A stretch of 64,000 nucleotides of DNA, taken from positions 51,156-115,155 of the forward strand of contig CANRAO010000002.1 in the NCBI GenBank assembly GCA_947628615.1, given 5' to 3'. Each line of letters begins with the position of its first letter. Within the stretch, counting starts at the first letter, position 1. Origin of the DNA: an uncultured Clostridia bacterium. Lineage in GTDB: Bacteria > Bacillota > Clostridia > Oscillospirales > Ruminococcaceae. Shown piece after piece: positions 2,648 to 62,368 of the stretch. The notes under the pieces were generated by a model, which was given only the letters and a program-made list of their open reading frames with translations, did not search any database and was not told the origin of the DNA. A program made the translations under genes and the position numbers.

Positions 2648-5600
2648 TCATTTAACCTTAACTTTCTTTGCTTTCTTAATCCAACTGCTGTAAGCCTTCC
2701 TCGACTTTCCTTTTGAATCTTTATAAGTAGCATATGCTCTTACCCTTACAAAGTAGGTCTTTTTACTCTTAATTTTGCTTCCCTTTATTGTTATTTTTTT
2801 CTTTTTTGTATACTTATCATATAATGGTTTCTTAAACTTATTCTTTTTGGAAACCTGTATATTATATCCTTTAGCTTTACTAACCTTTTTCCAGCTTACA
2901 ATTATCTTTTTCTTTGTCTTGCTCTTTACTTTAAGCTGTGTTATCTTTGCCTGCCTCATTGCATTTTCTGCCTTGAGTTGTGAAGCAGTTTTTGTTACTT
3001 TTACAATTGAAGATGCTTTTGGTTTATCCGTAATCCTTGCAGTTGTAGGCACTGTTGATGTCTGTGCAGGTGTATTGTCCGATTTTGATGAATCTGATGA
3101 TGATTCTGACGATTTTGACGGCTCTGTCGGATTAGTCGGTATATATGTACCCAGATCATCAATAGCGGCCTTCAGCTTATCTATAACCGCTGTCCTCTGA
3201 TTATCATCTGCTGAAGCGTTATTGTAGACGTCTACAAGATCTTTGTATGCCGTTTCAAACTGCTCCCACTGACTACTGCTGTAATTAGCATTTTTCTTGA
3301 TTGATGCAGCATCAAACAGAAGTTCCTTAACTTCTCCGCTTTTATTCAAAACCATATTGCTATATGCTGTTGCAAATTCATCATATACGGCTTTTTTGCG
3401 GTCATAATTAGTCTTTGAATTATAAAGTGCAGACTTCAGTGTACTCAGCTTGGATTTCATTTCAGAATACCCGCTGACGCAATCACTTGAATCTAATGCT
3501 TCACATTTTATAATCGCCTGATTAAATTTTACCATATCCAAAGCATAAACATCTCTTGCAACATAGGTATAGCCCTTGTTATCTCCTCCATTAAAAAATA
3601 CTTTAATCCATTTTTCGCAATCATTGGCACTCCCAATATTTGCACCTGTTGGGAATCTAAGAAAATACTTATCTAAGTTAGGATAATACAAATTGTGAAG
3701 CTCTGCCATTATGTTCATAACACGACTAGGCTCGTAGCTGGTCTTAGCAAGGTCTTCAATATTATCGAAAACCTTTTGTGCAAAATCAGGATTCTGCATC
3801 AATTTGTAAACTAATGTCTGAATAGGATCATTGTTTCCTCTTCCGCCATTATAGATCTGATAAAGCTTGTCATTTTCAGGGCTTTCACCATCATTTCCCC
3901 AGAGGAATGCTCCCATCTCTACATCATAGAACATAAATCTCCATTTGCCGTCGCTGTACTTTCCTCCGGTCTCTGTATCAACTGTTCTTGTTCTCCAAAC
4001 TTCCCAGTTTTTACCCGACCAGTCTTCGTTTGAGATATATGTTTCCACTGCAACGTAATCGGCAAAGCTGTCTAAATCTATCATCTTAGAAATTTCTTCA
4101 TAATCCGCCTTCTTTGAAAAATCCTTTGAAGAATCCTTAAAATAGCTTACAAAATCATTCCAAAGAGTTACGTCCTCGTCCGTACCTTCCTCTATCTTGG
4201 GGGCATTATTGTTTTCAGTATCAGGCTTGATCATTACAACATTATCTTTATCAACGCCGAAATGACTTTGTGCATAGTCGTCGTTATAATCTTCCTGCAT
4301 AGTATAAATTCCCCAGTATTCGCCGTTTATAAATGCAATACAAGGAACGCTTGCCTGAGTTGAAAAATTCCTGTCAAGCACGCAGGTTTGCAAAAGTGAG
4401 TCTTTATACTTTACATAGTTAGCGTCATTACCGCCGTTTCTGAGTGTGATTTTCTTAAACGATGTAATAGAATTACCTTCTGTATCCTTTGCTTTGCCGT
4501 CAAAGAAATCATATTTAAAGCTCTTTTCACCGTAATCGCTTCTTGCATAAAGCCTGAGGCTCTTTTGATATTCTCCTCTTGAATATCCTCCCTGAATTCT
4601 TATACCGCATTCTTGTGAAAACACAGCTTCATTATTCTTTATGTAATCAATATGCACAGGTCTTTCCCATTCTTTACCCTTGTTAGTGCAGTTTTTCTGA
4701 AGATATATTCCGTTCTGATCGCCAAATAAATTATCTGCATCGGTAACAATAGACATTATCGGAACACCCGAATATGTTTCATTTGTCTTTCCGACAAAAT
4801 ATGATTTTGTAACAACATTACTTGAATCTCCGTTTTTAATAGCAACAGCTCTGATAACCGTAGCCTTATCGACCTTGACCGTAGGCGCATCACTTCTATC
4901 CCAGCCCCTATGGTCTCCGTCAGTTAATTTTTCCTTGCTTATTGCAGAAAGAACATTATCTTCACTGGTTCTGTCAACAACATTAATCTTTCCTTCATAC
5001 TTATTTGACTTGTCAGTAGGAGTGCTTCCGTCAGTGGTATAATATATTTCTGTACCCTCCTCTGCAGTGATCTCAAGATCAAAACTGCTTTCAAACGCAC
5101 CGCTCTCTCTTGAAAATTTCGGAGACTGTATAACCGACTTAGCATTATTATTGCTTTCACCCGGCGTTGGGAATACCACCTTGCAGTTCTCATCACCGTC
5201 AGGGATCCTTGCATAAGTAGTATCATCAACAAGAGAAGGCACAGTCAACTTATTTACACTTTCAGATGTACTTGAAAGCAAATCCAAATCCAAACCATCA
5301 CTCGAAATATTCATAGCAACATACGGCTTGGAGTCAACCATAGTCGCATCCAAATGACTATTGCAGTACAACACAAGGTAACCATTTGCCGGCACTACTG
5401 CAGTACCGTTAATGGTTTCTGTTTTATCCTTTGCATCCAAATCAATCTTTTTAACCTGATAACCGGATATATCTATTGCAGAACCGGTTGGATTATAAAG
5501 CTCGATCCAGTCGCAAAGCTCAGTTTTAGTTTCACCGTCTTTTTCATAAACTGCTTTGACATCTGTTAGATTTCCGTTTTCACCGCTGTTTCCAAGACAA

Positions 5601-5719
5601 ACCTCATTAATAACAATGCTTTCAGCCGCCGTACCAATTACAAATGCAGACATACTGATAGCTGTACAAGTTATTGCTGCAGCCGTTGCAAAGCTAGTTA
5701 TTTTCTTTAAAACACCCAT
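2648..5719 (-). CDS. Secreted CotH kinase-like protein: signal peptide, lamin-tail domain, CHB_HEX_C-like domain, CotH core, helical region, S-rich linker, Lys-rich FN3-like C-terminal module
   Basis: AGGAGG RBS and signal peptide MGVLKKITSFATAAAITCTAISMSAFV. LTD-like INEVC..WIELYNPTGSAIDISGYQV; FESSFDLEITAEEGTEIYYTTDGSTPT. The CotH-family core is long (LRLYARSDYG.., INGEYWGIYTMQE). The tail ends KGYNIQVS..YFVRVRAYATYKD..KVKVK. Confidence 0.85.
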   Translation of the reverse strand: MGVLKKITSFATAAAITCTAISMSAFVIGTAAESIVINEVCLGNSGENGNLTDVKAVYEKDGETKTELCDWIELYNPTGSAIDISGYQVKKIDLDAKDKTETINGTAVVPANGYLVLYCNSHLDATMVDSKPYVAMNISSDGLDLDLLSSTSESVNKLTVPSLVDDTTYARIPDGDENCKVVFPTPGESNNNAKSVIQSPKFSRESGAFESSFDLEITAEEGTEIYYTTDGSTPTDKSNKYEGKINVVDRTSEDNVLSAISKEKLTDGDHRGWDRSDAPTVKVDKATVIRAVAIKNGDSSNVVTKSYFVGKTNETYSGVPIMSIVTDADNLFGDQNGIYLQKNCTNKGKEWERPVHIDYIKNNEAVFSQECGIRIQGGYSRGEYQKSLRLYARSDYGEKSFKYDFFDGKAKDTEGNSITSFKKITLRNGGNDANYVKYKDSLLQTCVLDRNFSTQASVPCIAFINGEYWGIYTMQEDYNDDYAQSHFGVDKDNVVMIKPDTENNNAPKIEEGTDEDVTLWNDFVSYFKDSSKDFSKKADYEEISKMIDLDSFADYVAVETYISNEDWSGKNWEVWRTRTVDTETGGKYSDGKWRFMFYDVEMGAFLWGNDGESPENDKLYQIYNGGRGNNDPIQTLVYKLMQNPDFAQKVFDNIEDLAKTSYEPSRVMNIMAELHNLYYPNLDKYFLRFPTGANIGSANDCEKWIKVFFNGGDNKGYTYVARDVYALDMVKFNQAIIKCEALDSSDCVSGYSEMKSKLSTLKSALYNSKTNYDRKKAVYDEFATAYSNMVLNKSGEVKELLFDAASIKKNANYSSSQWEQFETAYKDLVDVYNNASADDNQRTAVIDKLKAAIDDLGTYIPTNPTEPSKSSESSSDSSKSDNTPAQTSTVPTTARITDKPKASSIVKVTKTASQLKAENAMRQAKITQLKVKSKTKKKIIVSWKKVSKAKGYNIQVSKKNKFKKPLYDKYTKKKKITIKGSKIKSKKTYFVRVRAYATYKDSKGKSRKAYSSWIKKAKKVKVK

Positions 5720-5924
5720 ATTTTCCTCCTAATATTCTAATAGTGATAATTCATAACCGGTCAATATTTTCCATAATAATTTTAATACTTGTATTATCAA
5801 CAAAAAAATAAATCAATATATAAAAACTATTATTTAAAATCTATAATCCGCTATCCTTATGATAAATAATAAAAAGTAATTTGTCAACACTTATTTTTAA
5901 TATTTTTTACAAATTCTATAATAC

Positions 5925-5961
5925 AAAATCCCGGCAAACTTTGATGGCTTGTCGGGATTTT
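5925..5961 (-). terminator. Intrinsic terminator downstream of adhesin paralogue A
   Basis: 13-bp stem aaaatcccggcaa/ttgtcgggatttt (one G-U pair) with T-runs on both strands. Confidence 0.7.
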
Positions 5962-6088
5962 GGCTATTCAATAAATAGCGTAATATAATATTAAATTTTA
6001 ATAATCACAACTTTGACAGTCCCAACTGCTGTCTCAGCTATGAAAGCTGAGACACAGCTATTGGTTCTGTCTAGTTTGGACAACTATA

Positions 6089-8225
6089 CCCACTGGGCAT
6101 ATATTTAGGAATATTTAGAAGGCTTTTATCTGCCGCCTTAGAAAACATCTTGCTTTCCAAAGGCAGAGTGTGTAGCTCTCTCTGCTACTTTACTTTTACT
6201 TTTCTGAGCTTCTTGTTCCATTTACTATATACTTTTTGAGCCTTTCCATTTATATCTTTGTACGTTGTGTACGCGCTCACCCTGACATAGTATTTCTTTC
6301 CGCTCTTGATCTTCTTAGTGATCTTTAAAGTCTTCTTTTTTGTGTGCTTGTCGAAGATGATCTTGCTCTTCTTGAATTTCTTGTTCGTTGATACCTGGAC
6401 TCTGTAGCCCTTGGCTTTCTTGACCTTCTTCCAAGATACTGTGATCGTCTTCTTTGCTTTGCTCTTTACTTTGAGCTTTTTAATCTTTGCCTGCCTCATT
6501 TGACTCTTAGCTTTTGCTTTTGCTGCTTTTACTGCATCTGCTTTGCTGGTTGTCTTTACAATAACATTATTATTTACCGGCGGCTTATTAACGTTAGTGC
6601 CGACATTATTGTTGTTATTGTTTACGCTAGGCTTTTCACTTGGACTCGTAGGTTTTTCCTTAAGTCCACTGATTGCTTCCTCTATGGCTGCTTTCGCTGC
6701 CTTGAGGTCTCTAACTGTTAAGTTAGAATTTTGTTTTGCTATTAATCCTTTTGCTTCATTAATGGTTTCTGATAGTTTTGCATAACTATCTTCTGTGTAT
6801 TTACTACTATCAATTGCTTCTGCTTCTTCTACTGCTTTACTTAATTCATCTTTAGCTGCTTGTATTGCATCTGTGTCTTTCTTAAGACCATTTACAGCGC
6901 TAGTGAGATTATCTGATGCTTCCTCTAAATCTGATACTTTTGAATCTACTGTAACACTCTTAGCTGCTTCTATTGCATCTGTCAATGCTTGATAGCTATC
7001 TGCTGTGTAGCTTTCTGAATCCAATGCCTCTGCGCTTTCTATTAACTTCTGCAAATCGCTCAGCATTTTTTCTTTATCTACCTCTTCAAGACGGTCAATA
7101 AATGTATTCAAATTACTTGCTGCATTAGTTATCGTTCCTCTGTCAGTTACACTTTCCAGATCATCAAGAATCGCCTTTGCAGCGTCATATGCAGCCTGCA
7201 ATGCTTCTATCTGACTTGCTGTATACTTATACTCCGGACCGTCATCAAGAATTGCTTTTGCTTTATCCACTGCTTCCTGAAGTGCAGGAACATAAGCACT
7301 GAAATCTGTTATTGGTACAAGCTTGTCATATGCTGCTTTTATCTGCTCCTTGAAGCTGTTCAACTGTTCTGACGATACTGCTCCGGTAAGTACAAAGGAA
7401 GTTGTGTATTTTTCTGCCAATTCCTTCTGCAGTTCTTCAAAACCTGAAGATGTCCATGAATCTTCTGTATAGTCTGCTTTGTTAGTATTAATATATGTAT
7501 TCATTTCAGCTATGAAAGCGTTTCTTTCCTCCGGAGAAGCTAAATCTGCAGTTAATACAAGTGCTTTTATACCTTCATCAAGCTTTGTTATTGCATCTGT
7601 TATATCTGTAATCTTTGCTGCCGGATCAGCATATACCTTCTTTGCATAATCATACAATGACATATCTGCTGTCTCATCTCCGTCAGTATCGATCACCTTA
7701 TCAGTGAATACAGATGCTGCATTCCGATGATAATCACCTTGATGAGTTTTTACCTCATCAGCCTGATCTATTACTGCCTTCAAACCGGTCTTCAGTGCTT
7801 CGTTAGGATCCTTTACCTGTACCTCTTTTACTGCAGTTGAACCCTTATATTCATCCGTACCATCTAAACTTGCTTTGATCCAATAGTGTCCTACAGCAAG
7901 GTCGTCAGAATTGTACTTATATGACGGACTGTCAGTACATTCTGCATTACCGTGAATCTCAAGTTTAACCTTATCCTTCAATTCAGCATTTTCAACATTG
8001 TCTAACTTTACAGTAACGCTTGGCTTAAATCCGCCCTTTGTTCCGTAGTTGATGTCAGCACAGTTGATTTCTATGCTGCTGGTTTTACGTTCGTCTGTCA
8101 AATCCTCTACGATCATGCTTTCAGGAACAGGTGCTGAGCCGCCTTTAGTTCCATCAACTATCTGTTGTTTAACACCTGAGTCTTTAACAACATGGATTTT
8201 GGCATCTGGAATATCTTTGAATGTC
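6089..8225. repeat. Direct repeat copy 1 (~2.1 kb), paired with 12159-14300
   Basis: 6185-7759 reads identical to 12259-13833 (first mismatches at 7760 and 7772). Identity is ~90% up to ~8225. The repeat includes ~96 nt of shared 3' UTR. Confidence 0.9.
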
Positions 8226-8695
8226 GTAAATGCTCTAGGTGCAAATCGACCATCAAATACCACACTTGATGCATATATATATATATCTTTTAATGTAGTT
8301 GAACAAGACTCAAAGGTACGATGTTTAATAGTGAGTATATCTTTACAAGTATATTCAACTTTTTCCAAAGAGTTCAAACCGCTAAAAGCTGACACCGCCA
8401 CAGAAAGAGTTGGTGAAGCAGTTTTAACTGTTCTTATAGTGTTTCCAGCGTTGTTTGTACCTAAAGTATTCAATGCAACTGGCAATATACCATTTAAACC
8501 ATCATTAAAATCTTCAGGTATCACTAAATCACTAACACCTGTTAAATCAACTTCACTTTTAAATGATGCTTCGTATACGCTCCCAATTTTTGTATACTGA
8601 AAATAAATGTCAGTATTTATAGCATTACCAGTTATTGTTATACACGATGTTACTAAAATTAATGATAAAACTAAAGATAAAACTTTTTTTAACAC
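6185..8695 (-). CDS. Surface protein paralogue A: probable lipoprotein signal, short BspA-type LRR head, Ig-like region, FIVAR-like helical repeats, N/P/S linker, Lys-rich FN3-like C-terminal module
   Basis: The ORF track runs to 8782, but AGGAG lies 10 nt before the in-frame GTG at 8695, giving (M)LKKVLSLVLSLILVTSC, a lipobox-like sequence. FIVAR-like YTADSYQALTDAIEAAKSV and YTEDSYAKLSETINEAKGL. The tail ends GYRVQVS..YYVRVSAYTTYKD..KVKVK. Confidence 0.85.
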   Translation of the reverse strand: MLKKVLSLVLSLILVTSCITITGNAINTDIYFQYTKIGSVYEASFKSEVDLTGVSDLVIPEDFNDGLNGILPVALNTLGTNNAGNTIRTVKTASPTLSVAVSAFSGLNSLEKVEYTCKDILTIKHRTFESCSTTLKDIYIYASSVVFDGRFAPRAFTTFKDIPDAKIHVVKDSGVKQQIVDGTKGGSAPVPESMIVEDLTDERKTSSIEINCADINYGTKGGFKPSVTVKLDNVENAELKDKVKLEIHGNAECTDSPSYKYNSDDLAVGHYWIKASLDGTDEYKGSTAVKEVQVKDPNEALKTGLKAVIDQADEVKTHQGDYHRNAASVFTDKVIDTDGDETADMSLYDYAKKVYADPAAKITDITDAITKLDEGIKALVLTADLASPEERNAFIAEMNTYINTNKADYTEDSWTSSGFEELQKELAEKYTTSFVLTGAVSSEQLNSFKEQIKAAYDKLVPITDFSAYVPALQEAVDKAKAILDDGPEYKYTASQIEALQAAYDAAKAILDDLESVTDRGTITNAASNLNTFIDRLEEVDKEKMLSDLQKLIESAEALDSESYTADSYQALTDAIEAAKSVTVDSKVSDLEEASDNLTSAVNGLKKDTDAIQAAKDELSKAVEEAEAIDSSKYTEDSYAKLSETINEAKGLIAKQNSNLTVRDLKAAKAAIEEAISGLKEKPTSPSEKPSVNNNNNNVGTNVNKPPVNNNVIVKTTSKADAVKAAKAKAKSQMRQAKIKKLKVKSKAKKTITVSWKKVKKAKGYRVQVSTNKKFKKSKIIFDKHTKKKTLKITKKIKSGKKYYVRVSAYTTYKDINGKAQKVYSKWNKKLRKVKVK

Positions 8696-8797
8696 TACTA
8701 AACAACTCCTTAGAAAATTAATATATCTCATATATATGATTATTTCTGTGACATTATGATAAATACCACAGAAAATAATCATATTTATAAAAGAAAT

Positions 8798-8829
8798 ATA
8801 TTAGGCATATTAATTAATATGCCTAATAT
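8798..8829 (-). terminator. AT-rich perfect palindrome, probable terminator of the GH5 gene
   Basis: atattaggcatattaa/ttaatatgcctaatat forms a 16-bp stem, followed on the minus strand by atttctttt. Confidence 0.55.
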
Positions 8830-8838
8830 TATTAATTT

Positions 8839-10911
8839 CTAAGTAGCTGATGTAGGATTAGGGTTAGGATTAGGATTAGGGTTAGGGTTAGGATTTTGAT
8901 CGTATCCAGCAATAATTGAATCAACAATAGTCTGACCAGTTGTTGTAATTTTATTATTAATCCTATCAAATAATCCTGTTCCACCTACAGTAGTAACACC
9001 ATTATCCCAATAAGCAGTTACTATACCTAAATCTGCTGCATAATAATTTAACCAATAATCATAATTAGTTACCTGTACTAAATTATTACCAATAGTTCCA
9101 TCACTATTAGTAACAGATTTAAGCAAAGGACCATATTCACCTATGAAAACTGGCATACCTAAATTCCTTGCAAAATTGCTAATTGCGGTAAACTGAGCCT
9201 CCATATATGCTTTTCCACCGTATTCAGCATTTTCATCCCATATACTTGTACCATTTTCATATAGTGCAAAGGGTTGTGGATCATAATAATGAACATCAAG
9301 CATTAATCTGTCAGGTGTTGGATCTGCTGGCTTTGTGAATCCAGCAATGGTATAACCAATATTTGTAGCAAATCCTACAACCATCAATACACGGTCATCA
9401 TTATTTGTTCCTTCAGCATTACGTACAGCTTCAACAAATGCTGCATTAAGTGCATTTATATTGCTGTATTCATTTGCTGTTGGATTAGAAAAAGTATAAT
9501 TAGCAAGCTCATTAGCAGCCTCAAATACTAATTTTTGATCATAACCTGCAAAATTATTAGCTATATCTGTCCATACAGCTGCAAATTTGTTCTTGATTGC
9601 CTCAAATTCAGTACCTGTTTTGGTTATATCAATCCAACTTCCCGGTGTATTTAAATCACCATCATTATGGATATTGATTACAACGTACATACCAAGATTA
9701 TATGCATAGTTTACTACCTGCTGAATTCTTGCCATATAAGCGTCATCGATCTGGTTATTACCGTCAATCATATTCAAATATGAAATAGGTATTCTGACTG
9801 TATTAAATCCGGCTTCCTTTACAGCTTGAATAAGCTTCATAGTTGTTTTTGGGTTGCCCCAAGCCTTCTCATTAACACCCTTATCGTCAGATGCCTCAAG
9901 TGAGTTACCTAAATCCCAAGCAAGACCCATATTTGAAGCGATTGTTGAAGCCGTCTGTCCTGTTACAGGATTTGAAACTATGCCTTCAGTGTTATCATAT
10001 ACCTTAATCTCTGTAACTGTACACATATCATATGCAGCTATAAAGCTGGTGACAGAGTTAGGTACTTCTGTGGTAAAGGTATATGTGCCTTCTTCCAAAT
10101 CTACATAGTTTGGATCAACAGCTACATATATCATATTACCTTCATCATCAAGTTCGCCAGTTGGCAGCATGATTTCTGCTTGTGCAAAGTTACCCTGCTC
10201 ATCAACGCTCTCTTTTGCATATGTAACTGTTACGTCAATTGTTGGATTTGTCCATGCATTCAAATCAATTGCGGTAACCTCAATGTTCCACTCATTACCA
10301 CTAACTGTTGCTGCACCTGTAGGGTTTACTGTGAAATTACTTGCAGTACCCTTAGTCCAGCTACCTGTAGCGGTAAATGGCTTCTGAACATATTCGCCTG
10401 ATATTAAATCAAGTGATACTATAGTTACCTCTGATGTACCAAGCTGTGCTCCTGTCTGAAGGTTAATACCATAAGGTGTTGCACCCTCTGCAAGTTTGCT
10501 CTCAATTACTGAAATAGGAACATTTACTGTGTATTCCGTTCCTGCAACAGGAGTTCTACCACCTGTCTGATCATATCCGTTAGGACCTATTGTTGTTCTG
10601 TTCCAGCCACCCCAGGCTGTGTCGTATACAAGGAACTCGAAAGTATCATTGTATCCAACATCAGGTTCACCTTCCTGAGGTTCTGCCGGTGTTCCTACAA
10701 CATCATACTTAAACGTGATCTGGAATGCAGAATCCTGATAATATTGAGTTCTTGGGTAATTACCAATGAAAGTTGCATTACCTGTGAATGGGCCCTCATT
10801 TGAAATAAGGTTTGTATCAGCGTTTGCGCTTAACGATGTGCCTCCAATGAGACTTGTTGCTGCTAATGCTGTTGCAGCAACACATGAAAGCAATTTTTTA
10901 AACTTTCTCAT
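8839..10911 (-). CDS. Secreted glycoside hydrolase family 5 endoglucanase (cellulase) with an unassigned ~330-aa N-terminal region and a terminal (PN)n linker
   Basis: GGAGG RBS and signal peptide MRKFKKLLSCVAATALAATSLIGGTSLSANA. GH5 motifs NTVRIPISY, FEAANE (acid/base) and IGEYG (nucleophile). The protein ends PNPNPNPNPNPNPTSAT*. Confidence 0.85.
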   Translation of the reverse strand: MRKFKKLLSCVAATALAATSLIGGTSLSANADTNLISNEGPFTGNATFIGNYPRTQYYQDSAFQITFKYDVVGTPAEPQEGEPDVGYNDTFEFLVYDTAWGGWNRTTIGPNGYDQTGGRTPVAGTEYTVNVPISVIESKLAEGATPYGINLQTGAQLGTSEVTIVSLDLISGEYVQKPFTATGSWTKGTASNFTVNPTGAATVSGNEWNIEVTAIDLNAWTNPTIDVTVTYAKESVDEQGNFAQAEIMLPTGELDDEGNMIYVAVDPNYVDLEEGTYTFTTEVPNSVTSFIAAYDMCTVTEIKVYDNTEGIVSNPVTGQTASTIASNMGLAWDLGNSLEASDDKGVNEKAWGNPKTTMKLIQAVKEAGFNTVRIPISYLNMIDGNNQIDDAYMARIQQVVNYAYNLGMYVVINIHNDGDLNTPGSWIDITKTGTEFEAIKNKFAAVWTDIANNFAGYDQKLVFEAANELANYTFSNPTANEYSNINALNAAFVEAVRNAEGTNNDDRVLMVVGFATNIGYTIAGFTKPADPTPDRLMLDVHYYDPQPFALYENGTSIWDENAEYGGKAYMEAQFTAISNFARNLGMPVFIGEYGPLLKSVTNSDGTIGNNLVQVTNYDYWLNYYAADLGIVTAYWDNGVTTVGGTGLFDRINNKITTTGQTIVDSIIAGYDQNPNPNPNPNPNPNPTSAT
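8854..8895 (-). repeat. In-frame hexanucleotide repeat (7 units of AGGATT/AGGGTT) encoding the (PN)n tail of GH5
   Basis: The + strand reads aggatt agggtt aggatt aggatt agggtt agggtt aggatt, which translates as PNPNPN.. on the minus strand. Confidence 0.9.
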
Positions 10912-11084
10912 AGTCTAATCCTCCTATCTGATTAAATATTTAAAAAATTGACTTCGTTCTCCGGCATAAATGCTCTAGAATCAATTATGCCTTCAAACTT
11001 GAGCGCGTCGCCGTAAACTATTGTCTGCGGCTACAATTAAATAGTGCATCGGTTAACCTTATCTTTATTTAATTGTCTGATTTT

Positions 11085-11113
11085 ACATTAATATATTATC
11101 CTTTTAATGTCAA
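11085..11113 (-). promoter_or_regulatory. Candidate sigma-A promoter of the GH5 gene (TTGACA-17-TAATGT)
   Basis: Minus strand reads TTGACAttaaaaggataatatatTAATGT, ~170 nt upstream of the GH5 ATG. The -10 element is only moderate. Confidence 0.4.
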
Positions 11114-11119
11114 TAAACT

Positions 11120-11150
11120 TGTCCCGAAATTCCATTTTATGTCTCGAAAT
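11120..11150 (-). promoter_or_regulatory. Pair of direct repeats (TGTCCCGAAAT / TGTCTCGAAAT, 20-nt period): candidate LytTR-regulator binding site
   Basis: Repeats at 11120-11130 and 11140-11150 match at 10 of 11 positions. They end 6 nt upstream of the candidate -35 and are adjacent to the LytTR regulator gene. Confidence 0.4.
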
Positions 11151-11262
11151 AACAAAATTAGCATATGTATTTTATATAAAATTTCCTAGTAATTTGTCGA
11201 TATTTTGGTCATTTCATTACCTTTTTTCAGCTTTATTCTAAAATTTTTGCCCTATCCTTTCT

Positions 11263-11967
11263 TTATAACTCCTCTACCTTCCTTTTGTATGTCGCTTCGA
11301 ATTCCTTCGACCGACCTTTCGACAACGGTATTTCATCATCGTTGTTCATAAATATTTTTTCATTCCTTATGTATGTCTTGATTTGCGATAAGTTTACTAT
11401 GTGACTTCTGTGCGGCATGAAAAAATCAAAATTGCTGAGTTCTGAATATATTTCGTTTATTATTCCTCTGCATATATAATCATTGTCATTAGTTATTACT
11501 ATTACCTCTCTCTTTTTCGTTCCGCAGGATATGTACATTATTTTGTCCGCAGATATTAGTATTTCCCTGCCGTTTAATTGCTTGAATTTTATTACGTCTT
11601 TCCTTAGAAAGTTCGCAAACCTTAGATAATCTTCTAATATCCTGCTTATTTCTGTTTCCTTGCACGGCTTTTGTATGTAGTCGAATGCGTGAACTTTATA
11701 TGCCTGTTTTAAGTATTTAAAATTGTCGGTTATAAATACTATCTGTACTTGCGGATCAATTCTTCGTATTCTTCTTGCCAGTTTTATTTCTTCTATTCCC
11801 TTTATTTCTAAAAAAATCAAATTGAATCTAATGTGAGTTTGTAATAACTCTTTTCCGTCAGTATAAGTGAATACGTGTACCTCTGCATTAAATTTTGGAG
11901 CATCTCTATATAGGATTTCAGTTATTCCTTTTGCCTCCTCATTATCATAAACAGCAATTCTATACAT
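11263..11967 (-). CDS. LytR/AlgR-family response regulator (REC-like + LytTR DNA-binding domain) with an atypical receiver
   Basis: GGAGGG RBS before the ATG at 11967 (MYRIAVYDNEE..); the ORF-track start at 12015 lacks an RBS. LytTR domain has HRSHIVNLSQIK. The receiver has FLEIKG where the LD(I/V)xMP phospho-acceptor is expected. Confidence 0.85.
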   Translation of the reverse strand: MYRIAVYDNEEAKGITEILYRDAPKFNAEVHVFTYTDGKELLQTHIRFNLIFLEIKGIEEIKLARRIRRIDPQVQIVFITDNFKYLKQAYKVHAFDYIQKPCKETEISRILEDYLRFANFLRKDVIKFKQLNGREILISADKIMYISCGTKKREVIVITNDNDYICRGIINEIYSELSNFDFFMPHRSHIVNLSQIKTYIRNEKIFMNNDDEIPLSKGRSKEFEATYKRKVEEL

Positions 11968-11986
11968 ATTATCACCCTCCAAAAAC

Positions 11987-12015
11987 ACTATACCAAAATT
12001 ATACAAGAAATTCAA
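11987..12015 (-). promoter_or_regulatory. Sigma-A promoter of the LytTR regulator gene (TTGAAT-17-TATAGT)
   Basis: Minus strand reads TTGAATttcttgtataattttggTATAGT, ~20 nt upstream of the RBS. Confidence 0.55.
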
Positions 12016-12084
12016 TACATCATTATCTATTTTTTGATATTTTTTGCAAAATTTTTATTTATTATTTACAATTATTATAAAATA

Positions 12085-12113
12085 AAGGTGAGTACCTTTA
12101 CAGTACTCACCTT
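12085..12113 (-). terminator. Second (distal) intrinsic terminator downstream of adhesin paralogue B
   Basis: 11-bp stem aaggtgagtac/gtactcacctt followed by tattttat on the minus strand. Confidence 0.65.
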
Positions 12114-12118
12114 ATAAA

Positions 12119-12156
12119 AAACAGCGTCTGAACCATCCCCGATTCAGACGCTGTTT
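12119..12156 (-). terminator. Proximal intrinsic terminator of adhesin paralogue B
   Basis: 14-bp stem aaacagcgtctgaa/ttcagacgctgttt followed by tttttt on the minus strand. Confidence 0.8.
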
Positions 12157-12158
12157 GC

Positions 12159-14300
12159 CCCACTGGGCATATATTTAGGAATATTTAGAAGGCTTTTATC
12201 TGCCGCCTTTGGAAACCATCTTGCTTTCCAAAGGCAGAGTGTGAGTGGCGTCACGCCACTACTTTACTTTTACTTTTCTGAGCTTCTTGTTCCATTTACT
12301 ATATACTTTTTGAGCCTTTCCATTTATATCTTTGTACGTTGTGTACGCGCTCACCCTGACATAGTATTTCTTTCCGCTCTTGATCTTCTTAGTGATCTTT
12401 AAAGTCTTCTTTTTTGTGTGCTTGTCGAAGATGATCTTGCTCTTCTTGAATTTCTTGTTCGTTGATACCTGGACTCTGTAGCCCTTGGCTTTCTTGACCT
12501 TCTTCCAAGATACTGTGATCGTCTTCTTTGCTTTGCTCTTTACTTTGAGCTTTTTAATCTTTGCCTGCCTCATTTGACTCTTAGCTTTTGCTTTTGCTGC
12601 TTTTACTGCATCTGCTTTGCTGGTTGTCTTTACAATAACATTATTATTTACCGGCGGCTTATTAACGTTAGTGCCGACATTATTGTTGTTATTGTTTACG
12701 CTAGGCTTTTCACTTGGACTCGTAGGTTTTTCCTTAAGTCCACTGATTGCTTCCTCTATGGCTGCTTTCGCTGCCTTGAGGTCTCTAACTGTTAAGTTAG
12801 AATTTTGTTTTGCTATTAATCCTTTTGCTTCATTAATGGTTTCTGATAGTTTTGCATAACTATCTTCTGTGTATTTACTACTATCAATTGCTTCTGCTTC
12901 TTCTACTGCTTTACTTAATTCATCTTTAGCTGCTTGTATTGCATCTGTGTCTTTCTTAAGACCATTTACAGCGCTAGTGAGATTATCTGATGCTTCCTCT
13001 AAATCTGATACTTTTGAATCTACTGTAACACTCTTAGCTGCTTCTATTGCATCTGTCAATGCTTGATAGCTATCTGCTGTGTAGCTTTCTGAATCCAATG
13101 CCTCTGCGCTTTCTATTAACTTCTGCAAATCGCTCAGCATTTTTTCTTTATCTACCTCTTCAAGACGGTCAATAAATGTATTCAAATTACTTGCTGCATT
13201 AGTTATCGTTCCTCTGTCAGTTACACTTTCCAGATCATCAAGAATCGCCTTTGCAGCGTCATATGCAGCCTGCAATGCTTCTATCTGACTTGCTGTATAC
13301 TTATACTCCGGACCGTCATCAAGAATTGCTTTTGCTTTATCCACTGCTTCCTGAAGTGCAGGAACATAAGCACTGAAATCTGTTATTGGTACAAGCTTGT
13401 CATATGCTGCTTTTATCTGCTCCTTGAAGCTGTTCAACTGTTCTGACGATACTGCTCCGGTAAGTACAAAGGAAGTTGTGTATTTTTCTGCCAATTCCTT
13501 CTGCAGTTCTTCAAAACCTGAAGATGTCCATGAATCTTCTGTATAGTCTGCTTTGTTAGTATTAATATATGTATTCATTTCAGCTATGAAAGCGTTTCTT
13601 TCCTCCGGAGAAGCTAAATCTGCAGTTAATACAAGTGCTTTTATACCTTCATCAAGCTTTGTTATTGCATCTGTTATATCTGTAATCTTTGCTGCCGGAT
13701 CAGCATATACCTTCTTTGCATAATCATACAATGACATATCTGCTGTCTCATCTCCGTCAGTATCGATCACCTTATCAGTGAATACAGATGCTGCATTCCG
13801 ATGATAATCACCTTGATGAGTTTTTACCTCATCTGCCTGATCTATCACTGCCTTCAAACCGGTCTTCAGTGCTTCGTTAGGATCCTTTACCTGTACCTCT
13901 TTTACAGCTGTTGAACCCTTATATTCATCCGTACCATCTAAGCTTGCTTTGATCCAATAATGTCCTACAGCAAGGTCGTCAGAATTATATTCTAAGGCTC
14001 TTCCAGTACATTCACTATTATTATACATAGCCAATGTAACCTTATTCTTCAAATCAGCATTTTCAACATTGTCTAACTTTACAGTAACGCTTGGTTTAAA
14101 GCCGCCCTTTGTTCCGTAATTGATATCAGCACAGTTGATTTCTATGCTGCTGGTTTTACGGTCGTCTGTCAAATCTTCAATGATCATGCTTTCAGGAACA
14201 GGTGCTGTACCGCCTTTAGTTCCATCAACTATCTGCTGTTTAACGCCAGAGTCTTTTACAACGTGGATTTTGGCATCTGGAATATCTTTGAAAGTCATAA
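12159..14300. repeat. Direct repeat copy 2 (~2.1 kb), paired with 6089-8225
   Basis: See copy 1. The offset is 6,070 nt at the 3' UTR and grows to 6,074 nt at the stop codon, through a 1-nt and a 3-nt indel. Confidence 0.9.
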
Positions 14301-14775
14301 AGGCCATTTTACTAGTCCTAGCTACAGTAAAACTTACAGAAGAAGCATATATATATATATTTTTTAAAGTTGTAGAGCATTGAGAGAAAGTTAAAGCTGA
14401 AAACTCCAAATCATTTTTATTTGTATATCTAACCTCTTGTAAAGCATTTAAACCACGAAAAGCCGTTGCACCAAGAGATGCACTAGATGAAGAAGTTTTA
14501 ACAGAAGTAATACTATTGTTATTACTTAGACTAGCACTATTTAATTTTACATCCGCTTCACCATGACTATCATCATTATATTTATCAGGGAAATCTAAAG
14601 ATGTTATACTAGAAAAATCTTTACTTCCATTTAAAGAAGCTAAATAATAACCACCAGATGCATAACTAAAAGAAAAATAATCTAACTCCGTTGATGACGC
14701 ATACATAGCCCCTGTCAGCGATGTAACTGCCATTGTCGCAGCTGCTACAATGGATAAAAGTTTTTTTATAATCAT
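12259..14775 (-). CDS. Surface protein paralogue B: type-I signal peptide, divergent LRR head, then a body and Lys-rich C-terminal module identical to paralogue A
   Basis: The likely start is the ATG at 14775 (MIIKKLLSIVAAATMAVTSLTGAMYASS); the ORF track extends to 14832. The C-terminal ~525 aa (from ..QADEVKTHQGDYHRN..) are identical to paralogue A. Confidence 0.85.
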   Translation of the reverse strand: MIIKKLLSIVAAATMAVTSLTGAMYASSTELDYFSFSYASGGYYLASLNGSKDFSSITSLDFPDKYNDDSHGEADVKLNSASLSNNNSITSVKTSSSSASLGATAFRGLNALQEVRYTNKNDLEFSALTFSQCSTTLKNIYIYASSVSFTVARTSKMAFMTFKDIPDAKIHVVKDSGVKQQIVDGTKGGTAPVPESMIIEDLTDDRKTSSIEINCADINYGTKGGFKPSVTVKLDNVENADLKNKVTLAMYNNSECTGRALEYNSDDLAVGHYWIKASLDGTDEYKGSTAVKEVQVKDPNEALKTGLKAVIDQADEVKTHQGDYHRNAASVFTDKVIDTDGDETADMSLYDYAKKVYADPAAKITDITDAITKLDEGIKALVLTADLASPEERNAFIAEMNTYINTNKADYTEDSWTSSGFEELQKELAEKYTTSFVLTGAVSSEQLNSFKEQIKAAYDKLVPITDFSAYVPALQEAVDKAKAILDDGPEYKYTASQIEALQAAYDAAKAILDDLESVTDRGTITNAASNLNTFIDRLEEVDKEKMLSDLQKLIESAEALDSESYTADSYQALTDAIEAAKSVTVDSKVSDLEEASDNLTSAVNGLKKDTDAIQAAKDELSKAVEEAEAIDSSKYTEDSYAKLSETINEAKGLIAKQNSNLTVRDLKAAKAAIEEAISGLKEKPTSPSEKPSVNNNNNNVGTNVNKPPVNNNVIVKTTSKADAVKAAKAKAKSQMRQAKIKKLKVKSKAKKTITVSWKKVKKAKGYRVQVSTNKKFKKSKIIFDKHTKKKTLKITKKIKSGKKYYVRVSAYTTYKDINGKAQKVYSKWNKKLRKVKVK

Positions 14776-14991
14776 AAAAATCAACCTTTCTTTAATAAAA
14801 AAATTGCAGGCTAGTAATTTTGTAAACAACATTTAATTAATATATGCAAATCAGTTTTGCGGACAAAGCGCCTGCATACCTTATCCGTTATGCTGATATG
14901 CTGAAAAAACATCAATCACCCTCTTTGTTAAAAGCAGTAAATGCGGCATCACCCTCTTTTTTTTAATATAAAACAACATTGAGTAAAATAG

Positions 14992-15210
14992 TTATGTATG
15001 ACTAAGATTTTTAAAAGAATTATTTCTGAATATATTTGGGTCAATATCAAGAGCAATACATATCAGTAAAAACTCATCAGCAAGCATTTGCCGATTGCCG
15101 TTAAGCATTTCTGAAATAGTATCCTCATCCAATCCTGTTTTTTGAGCTATATAAATTTGTTTAATGTCGTTCTCGTTTACATAAGCATTTAATTTTTCTA
15201 CCACTTTCAT
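14992..15210 (-). CDS. XRE-family helix-turn-helix transcriptional regulator (72 aa)
   Basis: GGGGGAA RBS. HTH_3-like IKQIYIAQKTGLDEDTISEMLNGNR. It is divergent from the next XRE gene. Confidence 0.8.
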   Translation of the reverse strand: MKVVEKLNAYVNENDIKQIYIAQKTGLDEDTISEMLNGNRQMLADEFLLICIALDIDPNIFRNNSFKNLSHT

Positions 15211-15323
15211 ATAATTCCCCCTTCTAGTTCTATGAAATTAAGATGATATCTATATTATAATCTATATATTATAGAATGTCAAGGGGTTTTTAAAAATTTT
15301 TTCTTATTTTTATAGTTTTTCGG

Positions 15324-15352
15324 TTGACAATAACTAACAATTAATATATAAT
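15324..15352 (+). promoter_or_regulatory. Sigma-A promoter of the XRE-ImmA operon (TTGACA-17-TATAAT)
   Basis: ttgacaataactaacaattaataTATAAT has an exact consensus -35, a 17-nt spacer and a consensus -10. Tandem ctatattata motifs lie just upstream at ~15250-15280. Confidence 0.7.
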
Positions 15353-15384
15353 ATAATAAAATTTTTATGAAATTAGGTGGTAAA

Positions 15385-15828
15385 ATGTCACGAGAAACAA
15401 TAGCAAAGGTACTAAGAAAATTAAGACTTCAGAGCGGATTAACAGCAAACGAAGTTGGAGCTATGATTGGTAAGAGCGGAAAAACGGTCAACGCATGGGA
15501 AAATAACAGAGGTCAGCCTGATGCAGATATGCTTATGAATTTATGTGATATATATAATGTAGAAGATATTCTGTCTGAGTTCAGAGAAGTTGAAAGAGAC
15601 GCATTTGCGGTATCACATCATGAAAAGGAAGTAGTATTGGCATATAGAGAGAACACTTCTATGCAGCCTGCGGTAGACAGACTTCTTGGTGTCGAGAAAT
15701 CAAAGAAAATAACAGTATACAAAGCTGCCCGCAGTGATAACAATACAGAAGAAGACGGTTATGTTGAGCTTACACAGGAGCAGGTTGACAGTCTTGTAAA
15801 CGCTCCCGAAACGGACGATGATTTTTAG
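15385..15828 (+). CDS. XRE-family repressor-like protein (ImmR-like) with an acidic C-terminal tail
   Basis: AGGTGG RBS before the ATG at 15385 (the ORF track starts at 15367). HTH: LRLQSGLTANEVGAMIGKSGKTVNAWENNRGQP. C-terminal tail ..NAPETDDDF. Confidence 0.8.
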   Translation: MSRETIAKVLRKLRLQSGLTANEVGAMIGKSGKTVNAWENNRGQPDADMLMNLCDIYNVEDILSEFREVERDAFAVSHHEKEVVLAYRENTSMQPAVDRLLGVEKSKKITVYKAARSDNNTEEDGYVELTQEQVDSLVNAPETDDDF

Positions 15829-15953
15829 TATAAATAAAAAAGGCTCTTTATGTTAATAATACATAAAGAGAGAGTAAAGCATAAAAAGCAATTAGCATAA
15901 CAACCGTCCTAAACAAAATGTAAGCTCCTGATAATGGAGTATAATCATAAAAA

Positions 15954-16526
15954 ATGATTTACGGAAAATACAAAAATGCAAGAAATGCCGCATGGCAGTG
16001 TCTTATTGATTATAATGTAAAATCACTACCTGTTTCGGTATTGAGCATTGCAAAATCGGCAGGAATCAAAGTTATAAAAAAAAGCAAGGCAAACAAGGAT
16101 TTACTTTTGCCTTATTTGAGCGGTATTAGTTTTTTAATAGGAAATCAGTGGTACATAGTATACAATGATAACAGTACCCGTCAGCGAAACCGATTTACCG
16201 TTGCGCACGAGCTTGGGCATATCTTTCTCGGTCACGAGTTAGAAAAGAGAAATCAAATGACGCAAGCGTTCATGAAGTCAGAATCCAATGCTGAACAGGA
16301 AGCGAACATATTTGCCTCAAGACTGTTAGCACCGGCATGCGTTTTATGGGCGCTTGGCTTAAAAAACTCAACTGAGATTGCGTCTGTCTGCGATATTTCT
16401 CACACAGCGGCAAAATTTCGTGCCGAGCGAATGGAAACGCTTTACAAGCGTAACAGATTTCTTATAGCGCCTCTTGAAAGAGAGGTATACAACAATTTTA
16501 AGACATTTTTACAAAATTGCAAATAA
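15954..16526 (+). CDS. ImmA/IrrE-family (COG2856) zinc metallopeptidase
   Basis: HExxH motif in FTVAHELGHIFLGHE. Its size and its position directly after an XRE gene are typical of the family. Confidence 0.8.
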   Translation: MIYGKYKNARNAAWQCLIDYNVKSLPVSVLSIAKSAGIKVIKKSKANKDLLLPYLSGISFLIGNQWYIVYNDNSTRQRNRFTVAHELGHIFLGHELEKRNQMTQAFMKSESNAEQEANIFASRLLAPACVLWALGLKNSTEIASVCDISHTAAKFRAERMETLYKRNRFLIAPLEREVYNNFKTFLQNCK

Positions 16527-16536
16527 TATATAACAA

Positions 16537-16568
16537 AAAAGGAGAGTCATAAAGGCTCTCCTTTTAAT
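16537..16568 (+). terminator. Intrinsic terminator of the XRE-ImmA operon
   Basis: aaaaggagag/ctctcctttt stem followed by ttttaatattt. Confidence 0.7.
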
Positions 16569-16593
16569 ATTTATAAATTTTCATAAAAATAAA

Positions 16594-16613
16594 AGCAGGC
16601 AAATACCTGCTTA
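16594..16613 (-). terminator. Intrinsic terminator ending the rpsU transcript
   Basis: aagcagg/cctgctt stem, followed on the minus strand by tttatttttat. It lies ~185 nt after the rpsU stop. Confidence 0.6.
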
Positions 16614-16665
16614 GATAAACAAATATTCAACTCGTTAAAATCTTTTCAAGAACACAATCAACTTA

Positions 16666-16782
16666 CGCTGGTCTTACTTCTTGCTTCTTACCTCTTGCTT
16701 CTAGTTGCTAGCCTGCCGTTGTGCAAAGTAAACACATTTTGCAAACTTTTCAAAACAGCAGAGCCTCCGGCGGTTCGCCGGT
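16666..16782 (-). repeat. Intergenic repeat element, copy 1 (inverted relative to copy 2 at 44987-45109)
   Basis: An 84-nt core (16699-16782, reverse complement) matches 45026-45109 at ~82% by my count (69/84). An adjoining purine-rich arm also matches. It contains the hairpin ccggcg-aac-cgccgg. Confidence 0.7.
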
Positions 16783-16798
16783 GCAACGTCACCGTTGC

Positions 16799-16972
16799 CT
16801 AGTATTTTCTTTTACGAGCAGCTTCTGATTTCTTTTTTCTTCTCACAGAAGGCTTTTCATAGTGTTCTCTTTTACGAACTTCAGCAATAACCCCGTCCTT
16901 AGCGCAGCTTCTCTTAAAGCGTTTAAGAGCAGTATCCAAAGATTCGTTTTTTCCAACACGGATTTCTGCCAT
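16799..16972 (-). CDS. rpsU: 30S ribosomal protein S21
   Basis: Own translation: [67 protein letters not shown] 8 nt upstream. At 57 aa it falls below the ORF-track cut-off. Confidence 0.9.
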
Positions 16973-17137
16973 GGTTAATTCCCTCCCTTTGTCACCAATA
17001 ACAGAGGCATTAATGCCGATGCAAAGAATTTAACAGATAGTGATAATGAAGGATTCCTACCCTTTTAGAGCTTTCAGACAAGCCCACACCTCTGTTTTAC
17101 CTATCAAATTCACCATTTCATCAGCTTAACAAAATAG

Positions 17138-17166
17138 ATTATACTATAACTTTTTTCAAAAGTCAA
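17138..17166 (-). promoter_or_regulatory. Consensus sigma-A promoter upstream of rpsU (TTGACT-17-TATAAT)
   Basis: Minus strand reads TTGACTtttgaaaaaagttatagTATAAT. It lies just downstream of the leuS stop and leaves a ~160-nt leader before rpsU. Confidence 0.75.
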
Positions 17167-17175
17167 GGGTTTATC

Positions 17176-19581
17176 TTATTTAACTACAATATTTACAAGT
17201 TTTCCTGGAACATATATTTCCTTTACAATATTTTTACCGCTGATAGCCGCACTAATTTTAGGCTCTGATTTTACTTTTGATATTACATCGTCCTTGTTCT
17301 CATCAACGCTTATAACAAGCTTAGCTTTGACCTTACCGTTGATCTGAGCGACAATCTCGATAGTATCGTCAACACAGAGCGACTCGTCATACTCGGGCCA
17401 TTTCTGCTCATTGAGCATACCGCCAAAGCCGACATTCTGATAAATTTCCTCGGTAATATGAGGTGCAAACGGGTTTAGCAGAATGATAAAGGTTTTAAGC
17501 TCAGCCCTATTTATCTGCTTTGTCGCATAAATATCATTTATAAGAGTCATAAGAGCCGCAATTGCCGTATTGAATTTAAGGTTTTCAATATCCTCAGAAA
17601 CCTTCTTAACGGTCTTGTGGAAAGACGCCTTCAATTCCTCACGGTAATCATCTCCGTCAATAAGCATATCCTGAAGAGCCCAAACTCTGTCGAGAAACCT
17701 CTTGCAGCCTTTTATTGATTTAGTACTCCACGGAGCGGTCTTTTCAAAGTCGCCGACAAACATCTCATAAAGACGCAGAGAATCAGCACCGTATTCATTC
17801 ACAACATCATCAGGGTTTATAACATTCCCCCTAGACTTAGACATCTTTTGTCCGTCCTCACCTAAAATCATACCGTGAGAAGTTCTTCTCATATACGGTT
17901 CTTTGGTGGTAACAGCACCCAGATCATACAAAAACTTATGCCAGAACCTCGAATATAAGAGATGAAGCGTTGTATGCTCCATTCCTCCGTTATACCAGTC
18001 TACGGGCATCCAGTAATTAAGAGCTTCTTTAGACGCAAGCTCATTGTCATTGTGAGGGTCGCAGTATCTTAAAAAATACCAAGACGAGCCTGCCCACTGA
18101 GGCATAGTATCTGTTTCTCTTTTAGCAGGTCCTCCGCAGTGAGGACAAGTGGTATTAATAAAGCTGTCAAGTGTTGAAAGCGGCGATTCGCCGTTATCGG
18201 TCGGCATATAGCTTTCAACTTCCGGCAAAGTTAAAGGCAGTTCACTTTCAGGAATAGGCACATAACCGCACTTGTCGCAATAAACTATAGGAATAGGCTC
18301 TCCCCAATATCTTTGGCGTGAAAATACCCAGTCACGCAGCTTGTAGTTTACCTTTTTCTTGCCCTTGCCTGTTTCCTCCAGCCAGTCTTTGATTTTCACC
18401 TTAGCTTCCTCAACTGATAGTCCGTCCAAAAATCCGGAGTTTGTCATTATTCCGGTTGCACAGTCAGTAAAGGCTTCTTTAGTTACATCTCCGCCTTTAA
18501 CTACTTCAATTATAGGAAGATCAAATACCTTGGCAAAGTCATAGTCACGGGTATCGTGTGCAGGAACAGCCATAATTGCACCTGTTCCGTAGCCCATCAA
18601 TACATAGTCGGAAATAAAAATAGGGATCTCTCTGCCGTTGACAGGGTTAATTGCATAAACACCGTCTAACTTAACTCCCGTTTTTTCCTTAGCCATTTCT
18701 GTTCTCTCAAAGTCAGATTTTCTTGCCGACTTTTCCTGATATTCGTGAATAGCGTCGTTGTTTTTGAGTTTAGACGCCCACTTCTTTAAAATTGGATGTT
18801 CAGGAGAAATAACCATATATGTTGCACCGAAAAGCGTGTCGGGACGGGTAGTATAAACAGTTAGTATATCGCCCTCAGATGTCGTAAAGTCGACCTCTGC
18901 ACCCTCAGAGCGTCCTATCCAGTTTTTCTGGGTAGTCTTTATTTTTTCAAGGTAATTGACTTCTGATAAATCGTCAATTAGTCTTTGAGCATATTCGGTA
19001 ATTTTCAGCATCCACTGGCTCTTGACCTTGTGAACTACCTCTCCTCCGCAGCGCTCGCAAACACCGCCTACAACCTCTTCGTTTGCCAGAACAACCTTGC
19101 AGGAAGTACACCAGTTTACTGCCATTTCACTCTTATACGCAAGACCCTTCTTAAAAAGCTGAATAAAGATCCACTGAGTCCATTTAAAATAATCAGGGTC
19201 GGTCGTATTCACCTCTCTGTCCCAGTCAAATGACAGACCCAGCATTTTAAGCTGGCCCTTAAATCTTTCAATGTTTTTCTTCGTTACAACTGCCGGATGA
19301 ATCTTATTTTTAATTGCAAAGTTCTCTGTAGGCAGTCCGAAAGCGTCCCAACCCATAGGGAAAAGAACGTTATACCCTTGCAGTCTTTTCTTTCTTGAAA
19401 CAATATCCATTGCCGTATACGGACGGGGATGTCCTATATGTAACCCCTGTCCCGACGGATATGGAAACTCAACAAGCGCATAATACTTAGGCTTTGAATA
19501 ATCATCTGAAGCCACAAACGTCTTGTTTTCGTCCCATATATCCTGCCATTTTTTTTCAATCTCTTTAAAATTGTAATCCAT
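17176..19581 (-). CDS. leuS: Leucine--tRNA ligase
   Basis: [13 protein letters not shown].. N-terminus, HIGH-type motif (GLHIGHPR) and KMSKS motif (QKMSKSRGN). The ORF track starts at a GTG two codons upstream (19587). Confidence 0.95.
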
Positions 19582-62300: not shown

Positions 62301-62332
62301 AAACCGCCTGAACAATAATGCTCAGGCGGTTT
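62301..62332 (-). terminator. Hairpin downstream of the LRR protein gene
   Basis: aaaccgcctga/tcaggcggttt forms an 11-bp stem. The T-run on the minus strand is weak (tttaagtt). Confidence 0.5.
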
Positions 62333-62368
62333 GCCGTTTTGGGATATATAAATTTAGAAGGATGATGT

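Follow-up and report, generated by a model that had tools for sequence, protein, structure and literature searches.

Organization of the paralogue pair

We examined a 64,000-nucleotide (nt) stretch of DNA from an uncultured Clostridia bacterium, hereafter the window, in which two paralogous genes bracket the genes for a GH5 cellulase and a LytTR response regulator. The two paralogues are identical over most of their 3' parts and have distantly related 5' parts, a pattern that we attribute with high probability to recurrent gene conversion. All coordinates are window positions, and the window genome, a 1.86-Mb assembly of 44 contigs, is designated G000. The upstream paralogue (P0002, the up copy) lies on the minus strand in an open reading frame (ORF) at 12259-14832 that translates to 857 amino acids (aa) in the ORF list; its likely start is M20 at 14775, giving a gene of 12259..14775 and a protein of 838 aa. 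The downstream paralogue (P0001, the down copy), also on the minus strand, was listed and translated as an ORF of 865 aa at 6185-8782, and its likely start is a GTG at 8698 (6185..8698, 837 aa), the same length being called in a contig of the same species from another sample (L062). Between the two sit the LytTR gene (11263..12015, minus strand, 250 aa; Pfam LytTR, E 5e-16, and Response_reg, E 1e-8) and the GH5 gene (8839..10911, minus strand, 690 aa; PF00150 Cellulase, E 7e-49), whose product also has an N-terminal region of ~330 aa with no domain match. These Pfam matches confirm the identity of the bracketed genes given in the initial annotation.

Both paralogues encode the same order of domains: a signal peptide, a beta-rich head, an immunoglobulin (Ig)-like domain, a helical FIVAR stalk and a lysine-rich Fn3 tail. 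AlphaFold2 modeling of the up copy with an alignment of 10 sequences (mean predicted local distance difference test score, pLDDT, 77) placed these elements, numbered on the 838-aa protein, at residues 1-29, 30-205, 209-297, 301-678 and 740-836, respectively, with a disordered Pro/Asn linker at 684-718. Pfam FIVAR scored above threshold in three stretches in both proteins (66.7-67.2 bits against a gathering cut-off of 29.2; E 2e-18) and was matched in all 10 members of the family, and Pfam fn3 matched the C-terminus of both. A fold search with the up-copy model retrieved Fn3 domains and matched the stalk to Staphylococcus aureus EbhA (2dgj), and the sole NCBIfam match was a FIVAR-like one, to the tail of a lacto-N-biosidase. 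A VTSC motif resembling a lipobox is present in the down-copy signal peptide.

The head family is small, with 10 members among the 5.8 billion proteins searched. The down head is unrelated to the up head at the DNA level, and its first ~460 nt had no relative above 65% nucleotide identity in any lineage examined. The head alone (model pLDDT 86) gave no significant PDB match in Foldseek (none at E<0.001), the low-probability matches being to internalins and insulin-receptor L domains; Pfam LRR_5 stayed below threshold (best 17.1 bits against a cut-off of 27.7), with 2 of the 10 members at E<0.01. A head resembling a leucine-rich-repeat (LRR) adhesin is thus a lead, and the heads are variable and probably ligand-binding. 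The lysine-rich Fn3 tail, which has about 50 tblastn matches in the 1.86-Mb genome, including a CotH protein, probably serves as the anchor that holds the protein on the cell surface.

The paralogues share an internal tract of perfect identity

The repeats make up the 3' two-thirds of both genes. BLASTN and a repeat search recovered them in direct orientation with a period of 6074 nt, 6089-8230 against 12159-14301, at 97.25% identity over 2148 nt, and no other repeat in the 1.86-Mb assembly exceeds about 600 nt at ≥95% identity. Base-by-base alignment showed that 6185..7759 and 12259..13833, both on the minus strand, are identical over 1575 nt with zero differences as assembled. This tract comprises the stop codon and the last 524 codons, that is, the whole stalk, the linker and the Fn3 tail. 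The first differences beyond it, at 7760/13834 and 7772/13846, were recovered where the initial annotation had placed them, as was the local replacement patch (EIHGNAECTDSPSYKYN versus AMYNNSECTGRALEYN).

Upstream in the genes, the zone at 7760..8232 of the down copy and 13834..14303 of the up copy (both minus strand) spans the Ig-like domain together with the C-terminal portion of the head and is 83-97% identical, and its alignment and synonymous divergence (dS) mark it as of intermediate age. In 100-nt bins across 7733-8232, identity was 97, 87, 83, 94 and 90%, and beyond 8233 it was 45-60%, as expected from the earlier description of a zone of about 90% followed by distantly related heads. 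On the other side, the tract starts exactly at the stop codon, where seven differing positions, two of them small indels, are clustered in 6171-6184; the 3' untranslated region (UTR) beyond this cluster is ~90% identical, and then similarity ends. The two 3' UTRs (6089..6184 for the down copy and 12159..12258 for the up copy, minus strand, ~90% identical in alignment) are shared as first noted, and their alignment contains three indels (of 1, 2 and 1 nt) and eight substitutions instead of the two indels originally counted. The identity gradient likewise required correction: perfect identity does give way to lower identity, but the decay is not one-sided, the perfect tract being internal with zones of ~90% on both sides.

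The identity pattern is a step, made of nested strata of different age. Between the paralogues, dS was 1.23 in the head, 0.31 in the zone of the C-terminal head and Ig-like domain (ratio of nonsynonymous to synonymous divergence, dN/dS, 0.20) and 0.003 in the tail. When the 60 differing columns were permuted over the 2148 nt of the alignment, none of 200,000 permutations produced a difference-free run of at least 1575 nt (the longest was 529), and an analytic bound gave 2e-33.

The cassette is conserved and the tails are homogenized within genomes

We compared seven lineages: the window genome G000, G007, G012, G003, G009, L070 and L071. Six of them, all but G009, provided complete paralogue pairs. 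Three further contigs of the window's own species from other samples (L062, L063 and L068) were found through GH5 and LytTR proteins identical to those of the window. All assemblies are short-read metaSPAdes metagenome assemblies. The relatives are metagenome-assembled genomes (MAGs) labeled "uncultured Clostridia bacterium" from rabbit gut ("Lapin" bins), together with a human-gut "Ruminococcus sp." MAG (UMGS771) and the more distant Porcipelethomonas. The cassette is conserved across a single subclade of an uncultured genus of gut Clostridia, represented mainly by MAGs from rabbit gut. Among 19 genomes labeled as one genus, LeuRS defined two deep groups, with at least 92% and ~64% aa identity to the LeuRS of the window, and close matches to the paired genes and the cassette were seen only in the former. 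Exact-protein look-ups returned no record for the two paralogues, queried with two alternative starts, and none for LeuRS.

The order up copy, LytTR, GH5, down copy was found in G007, G012, G003, G009, L070 and L071, with one extra gene in G012 and with the G009 cassette split over contigs. On sufficiently long contigs, the cassette is flanked by LeuRS-rpsU-XRE at one end and by CotH at the opposite end. The cassette is conserved across lineages whose GH5 genes share only 75-84% DNA identity.

Within genomes, the two tails were identical or nearly so in five of the six complete pairs, and homogenization occurred independently in these five lineages. The longest identical run between the copies measured 1803 nt in L070, extending 117 nt past the stop codon; 1575 nt in G000, ending at the stop codon; 1466 nt in G007, ending ~100 nt before it; 1134 nt in G012, again ending at it; and 664 nt in L071, preceded by a graded rise in identity from ~75% to 97%. 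In G003 the longest run was 27 nt, and the copies were 73-85% alike throughout, with no recent conversion. The 3' ends of the tracts thus fall before, at or after the stop codon, depending on the lineage. The initial annotation had proposed alignments of sister strains as a means of mapping conversion tracts, and this comparison yielded tract lengths and end points that differ by lineage and paralogues that cluster by genome.

Between genomes, the same tails were far from identical. Between G000 and G007, tail identity was 63-95% in 150-nt alignment windows, and over the last 600 nt it was 77-97% across genomes; in a four-way alignment of G000 and G007 the paralogue tails were 100% identical within each. 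A maximum-likelihood tree of the last 600 nt paired the paralogues by genome (identical, or with 98-100% support). The Fn3 tail of the adjoining CotH-family secreted protein (2648..5719, minus strand, 1023 aa, downstream of the down copy) belongs to the same lysine-rich family, with 62% protein identity, and is not converted; used as an orthology control, the CotH tails clustered by orthology in the tail tree. The heads behaved differently from the paralogue tails. The first 300 columns of the up copy were 81-92% identical between G000 and G007, as expected of orthologs, and the G000 up head was 98-100% identical to the G009 up head over the first ~360 nt and 96% identical to that of G007 at its very start. 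Since the up heads are orthologous across lineages, the duplication is older than these lineages.

Variation within the species and mosaic heads

Same-species contigs from other samples revealed variation inside and at the edge of the tract. L063 carries the up-copy base at 7772, indicating that the tract end is polymorphic. L062 and L068 carry an alternative stalk allele with 20 single-nucleotide polymorphisms (SNPs) in 270 nt (7268-7537, equivalent to 13342-13611), causing 10 amino-acid changes, as well as a 3-nt indel at 6639 and a few more SNPs (6603-6639, equivalent to 12677-12713). Over more than 10 kb of flanking sequence around this allele, L068 is identical to the window and L062 has one difference, at 8702. 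L068 begins exactly 55 nt, one k-mer, before the first SNP of the allele; that sample therefore contains both stalk alleles, carried by two strains or by the two gene copies within one genome. A search of the genome for a donor of the 270-nt patch found none, the only matches being the two copies themselves at 94%.

The heads are mosaic across positions and lineages. An Ig loop (7915-7965 and 13987-14036) is dimorphic, with type A reading KLEIHGNAECTDSPSYKYN and type B reading TLAMYNNSECTGR-ALEYN. G000 has type B in the up copy and type A in the down copy; G009 and L070 have the opposite arrangement; L071 has a third type in the up copy and type B in the down copy; and G007 has type A in both. 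Two different loop types are thus kept in four of the five lineages. This dimorphism suggests exchange between the two positions, perhaps accompanied by selection for two different loops.

Probable recurrent gene conversion and competing explanations

The interpretation that best accounts for these data is that recurrent gene conversion between old tandem paralogues keeps their 3' two-thirds in concert, to which we assign a probability of about 0.85. The suggestion in the initial annotation that conversion homogenizes tail and stalk is consistent with the identity within genomes, the 63-97% identity between them, the trees that group by genome and the lineage-specific tract ends. Nested dS strata, lineage-specific tract ends and the unconverted G003 pair together point to repeated conversion of an old duplication and exclude one recent duplication event as the source of the pattern. 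Under this model, old tandem paralogues bracketing the GH5 and LytTR genes would undergo homology-driven conversion between direct repeats 6 kb apart, presumably RecA-dependent, in which one tail is repeatedly overwritten with the other; we infer both the enzymology and the direction of transfer. The outcome would be tails that are the same within a genome and divergent between genomes. Tracts tend to end at or downstream of the junction between Ig-like domain and stalk, upstream of which either the divergence may be too great for pairing or selection may favor two different heads. Unequal exchange must on occasion delete or duplicate the GH5-LytTR segment, apparently as a by-product removed by selection.

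Several points weigh against this model. In short-read data, an X-R-Y-R-Z repeat is written from one graph edge and isolated SNPs may have been collapsed, so that the copies may in reality match at about 99% or more of their positions and not at every one. Conversion is read here from a sequence pattern. Finally, the tract ends exactly at the stop codon in both G000 and G012, which simple homology-driven conversion does not predict; given that the L070 and G007 tracts end elsewhere, this is probably a coincidence.

The repeat could in principle owe its perfection, or even its second copy, to a collapsed or mis-threaded metagenome assembly: a 1.5-kb exact repeat exceeds reads and inserts, the record names imply that both copies derive from the same graph edge, and sample ERZ27249530 contains a branch point at which two stalk alleles co-occur. 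We consider such an artefact highly improbable. Two distinct heads, two 3' UTRs and two zones of ~90% identity join the tract, and no path other than X-R-Y-R-Z accommodates every one of them; independent assemblies of G007, L070 and L071 recovered this order as well. In L071 (25x coverage), stalk divergence is 6-25%, and the assembler resolved the greater part of the two tails as separate sequences, demonstrating that two physical tails exist. In four other samples, contigs of the window's species break off exactly one k-mer (55 nt) into the repeat; those reaching the up head, sought in order to phase the stalk alleles, all end at the first shared k-mer. The two G009 contigs terminate in a common 77-nt sequence where the stalk begins. 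Contig ends at this place in independent assembly graphs are what a real repeat would produce. Divergence above ~2% would split the copies at k=55, as happened in the flanks of ~90% identity and over the larger part of the L071 stalk, so that at most a few isolated SNPs could be hidden and the conclusion would be unchanged. Identical copies within a genome would also arise if each lineage had recently duplicated the tail, or the entire gene, on its own and the heads had then diverged quickly without ongoing conversion. This scenario retains almost no probability: the arrangement, the intervening genes and the flanks are common to all lineages, and the up heads are orthologous across G000, G009 and G007, so that shared synteny and orthologous heads effectively refute it. 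Moreover, head dS exceeds 1 and tail dS is ~0 in the same gene pair, and the nested strata and the graded L071 profile call for multiple events that differ in age. We rejected purifying selection as an explanation of the identity, because the copies also match at synonymous sites and because, between species, the tail ranks among the parts that diverge faster.

The initial annotation had also raised the possibility of an on/off or copy-number switch for the cellulase, in which the GH5-LytTR segment would be lost or amplified by recombination between the 1.6-2.1-kb direct repeats often enough to be useful, and the cell would exploit this to set cellulase dosage. RecA-dependent recombination between kilobase direct repeats is certain to give rise to rare deletion and duplication variants, and the geometry, direct repeats with a long perfect tract 6 kb apart, permits it. 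Contig L062 (ERZ27249541 NODE_2340, 8623 nt) runs Y-R-Y-R with a 2546-nt self-overlap at 100%, passing through the GH5 end, down head, tail, LytTR, GH5, down head and tail, an order that a tandem duplication or an excised circle would fit. The switch is nonetheless speculation and very unlikely, and the data did not bear it out: GH5-LytTR lies intact between the paralogues in all seven lineages despite the divergence of their GH5 genes, deletion would be irreversible within a lineage, coverage gives no sign of amplification (5.42 for L062 against 5.47 for a single-copy flank contig of the same sample), and a repeat search of 4000-18000 found no inverted repeats and no invertible or other switch elements. 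An e1-e2-e1 path is the assembler output expected on a two-edge cycle. We therefore rejected L062 as an amplification: with two passes that are 100% identical and coverage equal to that of the flank, it probably reflects how the assembler handled a cycle.

A bolder extension of the conversion model, which we hold to be unlikely, is that the homogenized stalk and tail, with the conserved Ig domain and upstream flank, form a maintained recombination handle by which heads and Ig loops are swapped between positions and between strains. The mosaic heads, the opposite loop positions, the retention of two loop types and the 270-nt stalk patch would all fit. If it were true, the cell would at all times present two dissimilar heads on the same kind of stalk, beside its cellulase. 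A weaker form, in which reversible GH5-LytTR amplification provides dosage control, is speculation.

Neighboring genes and additional repeats

Several observations on the surrounding genes were made in parallel. The C-terminus of the window GH5 (8839-8900) is a bare (PN)7 linker followed by TSAT and the stop codon, with no anchoring module, and the other GH5 paralogues of the genome are longer. Two GH5 paralogues outside the window, C2:254949-256982 and C25:708-2702, are 81% and 66% identical to the window GH5; each showed one in-frame TAA in the six-frame match, perhaps as a pseudogene or perhaps because the match crosses between frames.

A terminator-like hairpin at 12113-12085 follows the 3' UTR of the up copy. 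The interval separating the GH5 stop codon from the down-copy start contains a perfect palindrome with a 14-bp stem (8798-8829, ATATTAGGCATATT-AATT-AATATGCCTAATAT), terminator-like on both strands.

Lysine-rich Fn3 tails also occur in other repeats and genes. The extra gene in the G012 cassette (L014, G012:C8, 10302-12554) encodes a third protein with such a tail, of 751 aa, between the paralogues, and its tail is not homogenized with theirs. An inverted repeat of 432 nt at 96% identity links window positions 62301-62732 to C2:50504-50935 in the genome, about 220 nt left of the window start. It consists of the lysine-rich Fn3 tails of two other secreted proteins of the type LRR_5 plus Fn3, which point toward one another from opposite ends of the 62-kb interval. 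This repeat could be an inversion substrate or another converted pair.

Discussion

Our analysis describes partial concerted evolution in uncultured gut Clostridia, in which stalk and anchor are homogenized and the heads are kept apart and reshuffled. This has practical consequences for sequence analysis. The identity of the copies here is not readable as recent duplication, and orthology assignment or strain typing based on these tails would mislead. Such loci also break or collapse in short-read MAGs, and the contigs of several relatives end exactly at the repeat.

Some components of these proteins resemble known modules. As in S. aureus Ebh/EbhA, there are FIVAR matches and a predicted helical-bundle stalk matching 2dgj; unlike Ebh, the proteins described here have about 840 aa instead of ~10,000, a different N-terminal head and neither an LPXTG motif nor a membrane anchor, the lysine-rich Fn3 domain ending the protein. 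The tail recalls the CBM37-type surface-attachment modules of Ruminococcus albus in being a C-terminal module common to dozens of different secreted proteins in one genome. It differs from them in having no sequence relationship, an Fn3 fold and an extreme lysine content.

In terms of process, the tufA/tufB genes of Salmonella and Escherichia coli offer one parallel. RecA-dependent conversion reportedly keeps those paralogues nearly identical, and in both cases two paralogues of one chromosome stay alike and cluster by genome in trees. The tuf genes, however, are redundant housekeeping genes in inverted orientation that are converted over their full length, whereas here only the 3' part is converted and the heads are kept different.

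The closest parallel in behavior is found in Helicobacter pylori, where the paralogous surface genes babA/babB and homA/homB have 3' ends homogenized within a genome. According to PMC3960876 (citing Pride and Blaser 2002), the 5' and middle parts of these genes follow strain-independent allelic lineages. The same source (PMC3960876) describes 3' segments, the anchoring part, that are more alike within a strain than between strains, a similarity attributed to RecA-dependent intragenomic gene conversion, and exchange between loci that makes chimeric genes. There are also differences. The proteins are unrelated, being outer-membrane beta-barrels in H. pylori and, here, a FIVAR stalk with an Fn3 tail in a monoderm. 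The H. pylori loci are dispersed, whereas the present pair is directly oriented at a spacing of 6 kb and encloses two further genes, a tandem arrangement that is particular to this locus, and no slipped-strand phase variation was seen here. Conversion was measured experimentally in H. pylori and is read from sequence comparison here. Taken together, the locus is a plain, unexceptional instance of a known process that reveals no new mechanism; its significance is that surface paralogues of fiber-degrading commensals follow a recombination logic long known from the adhesins of pathogens.

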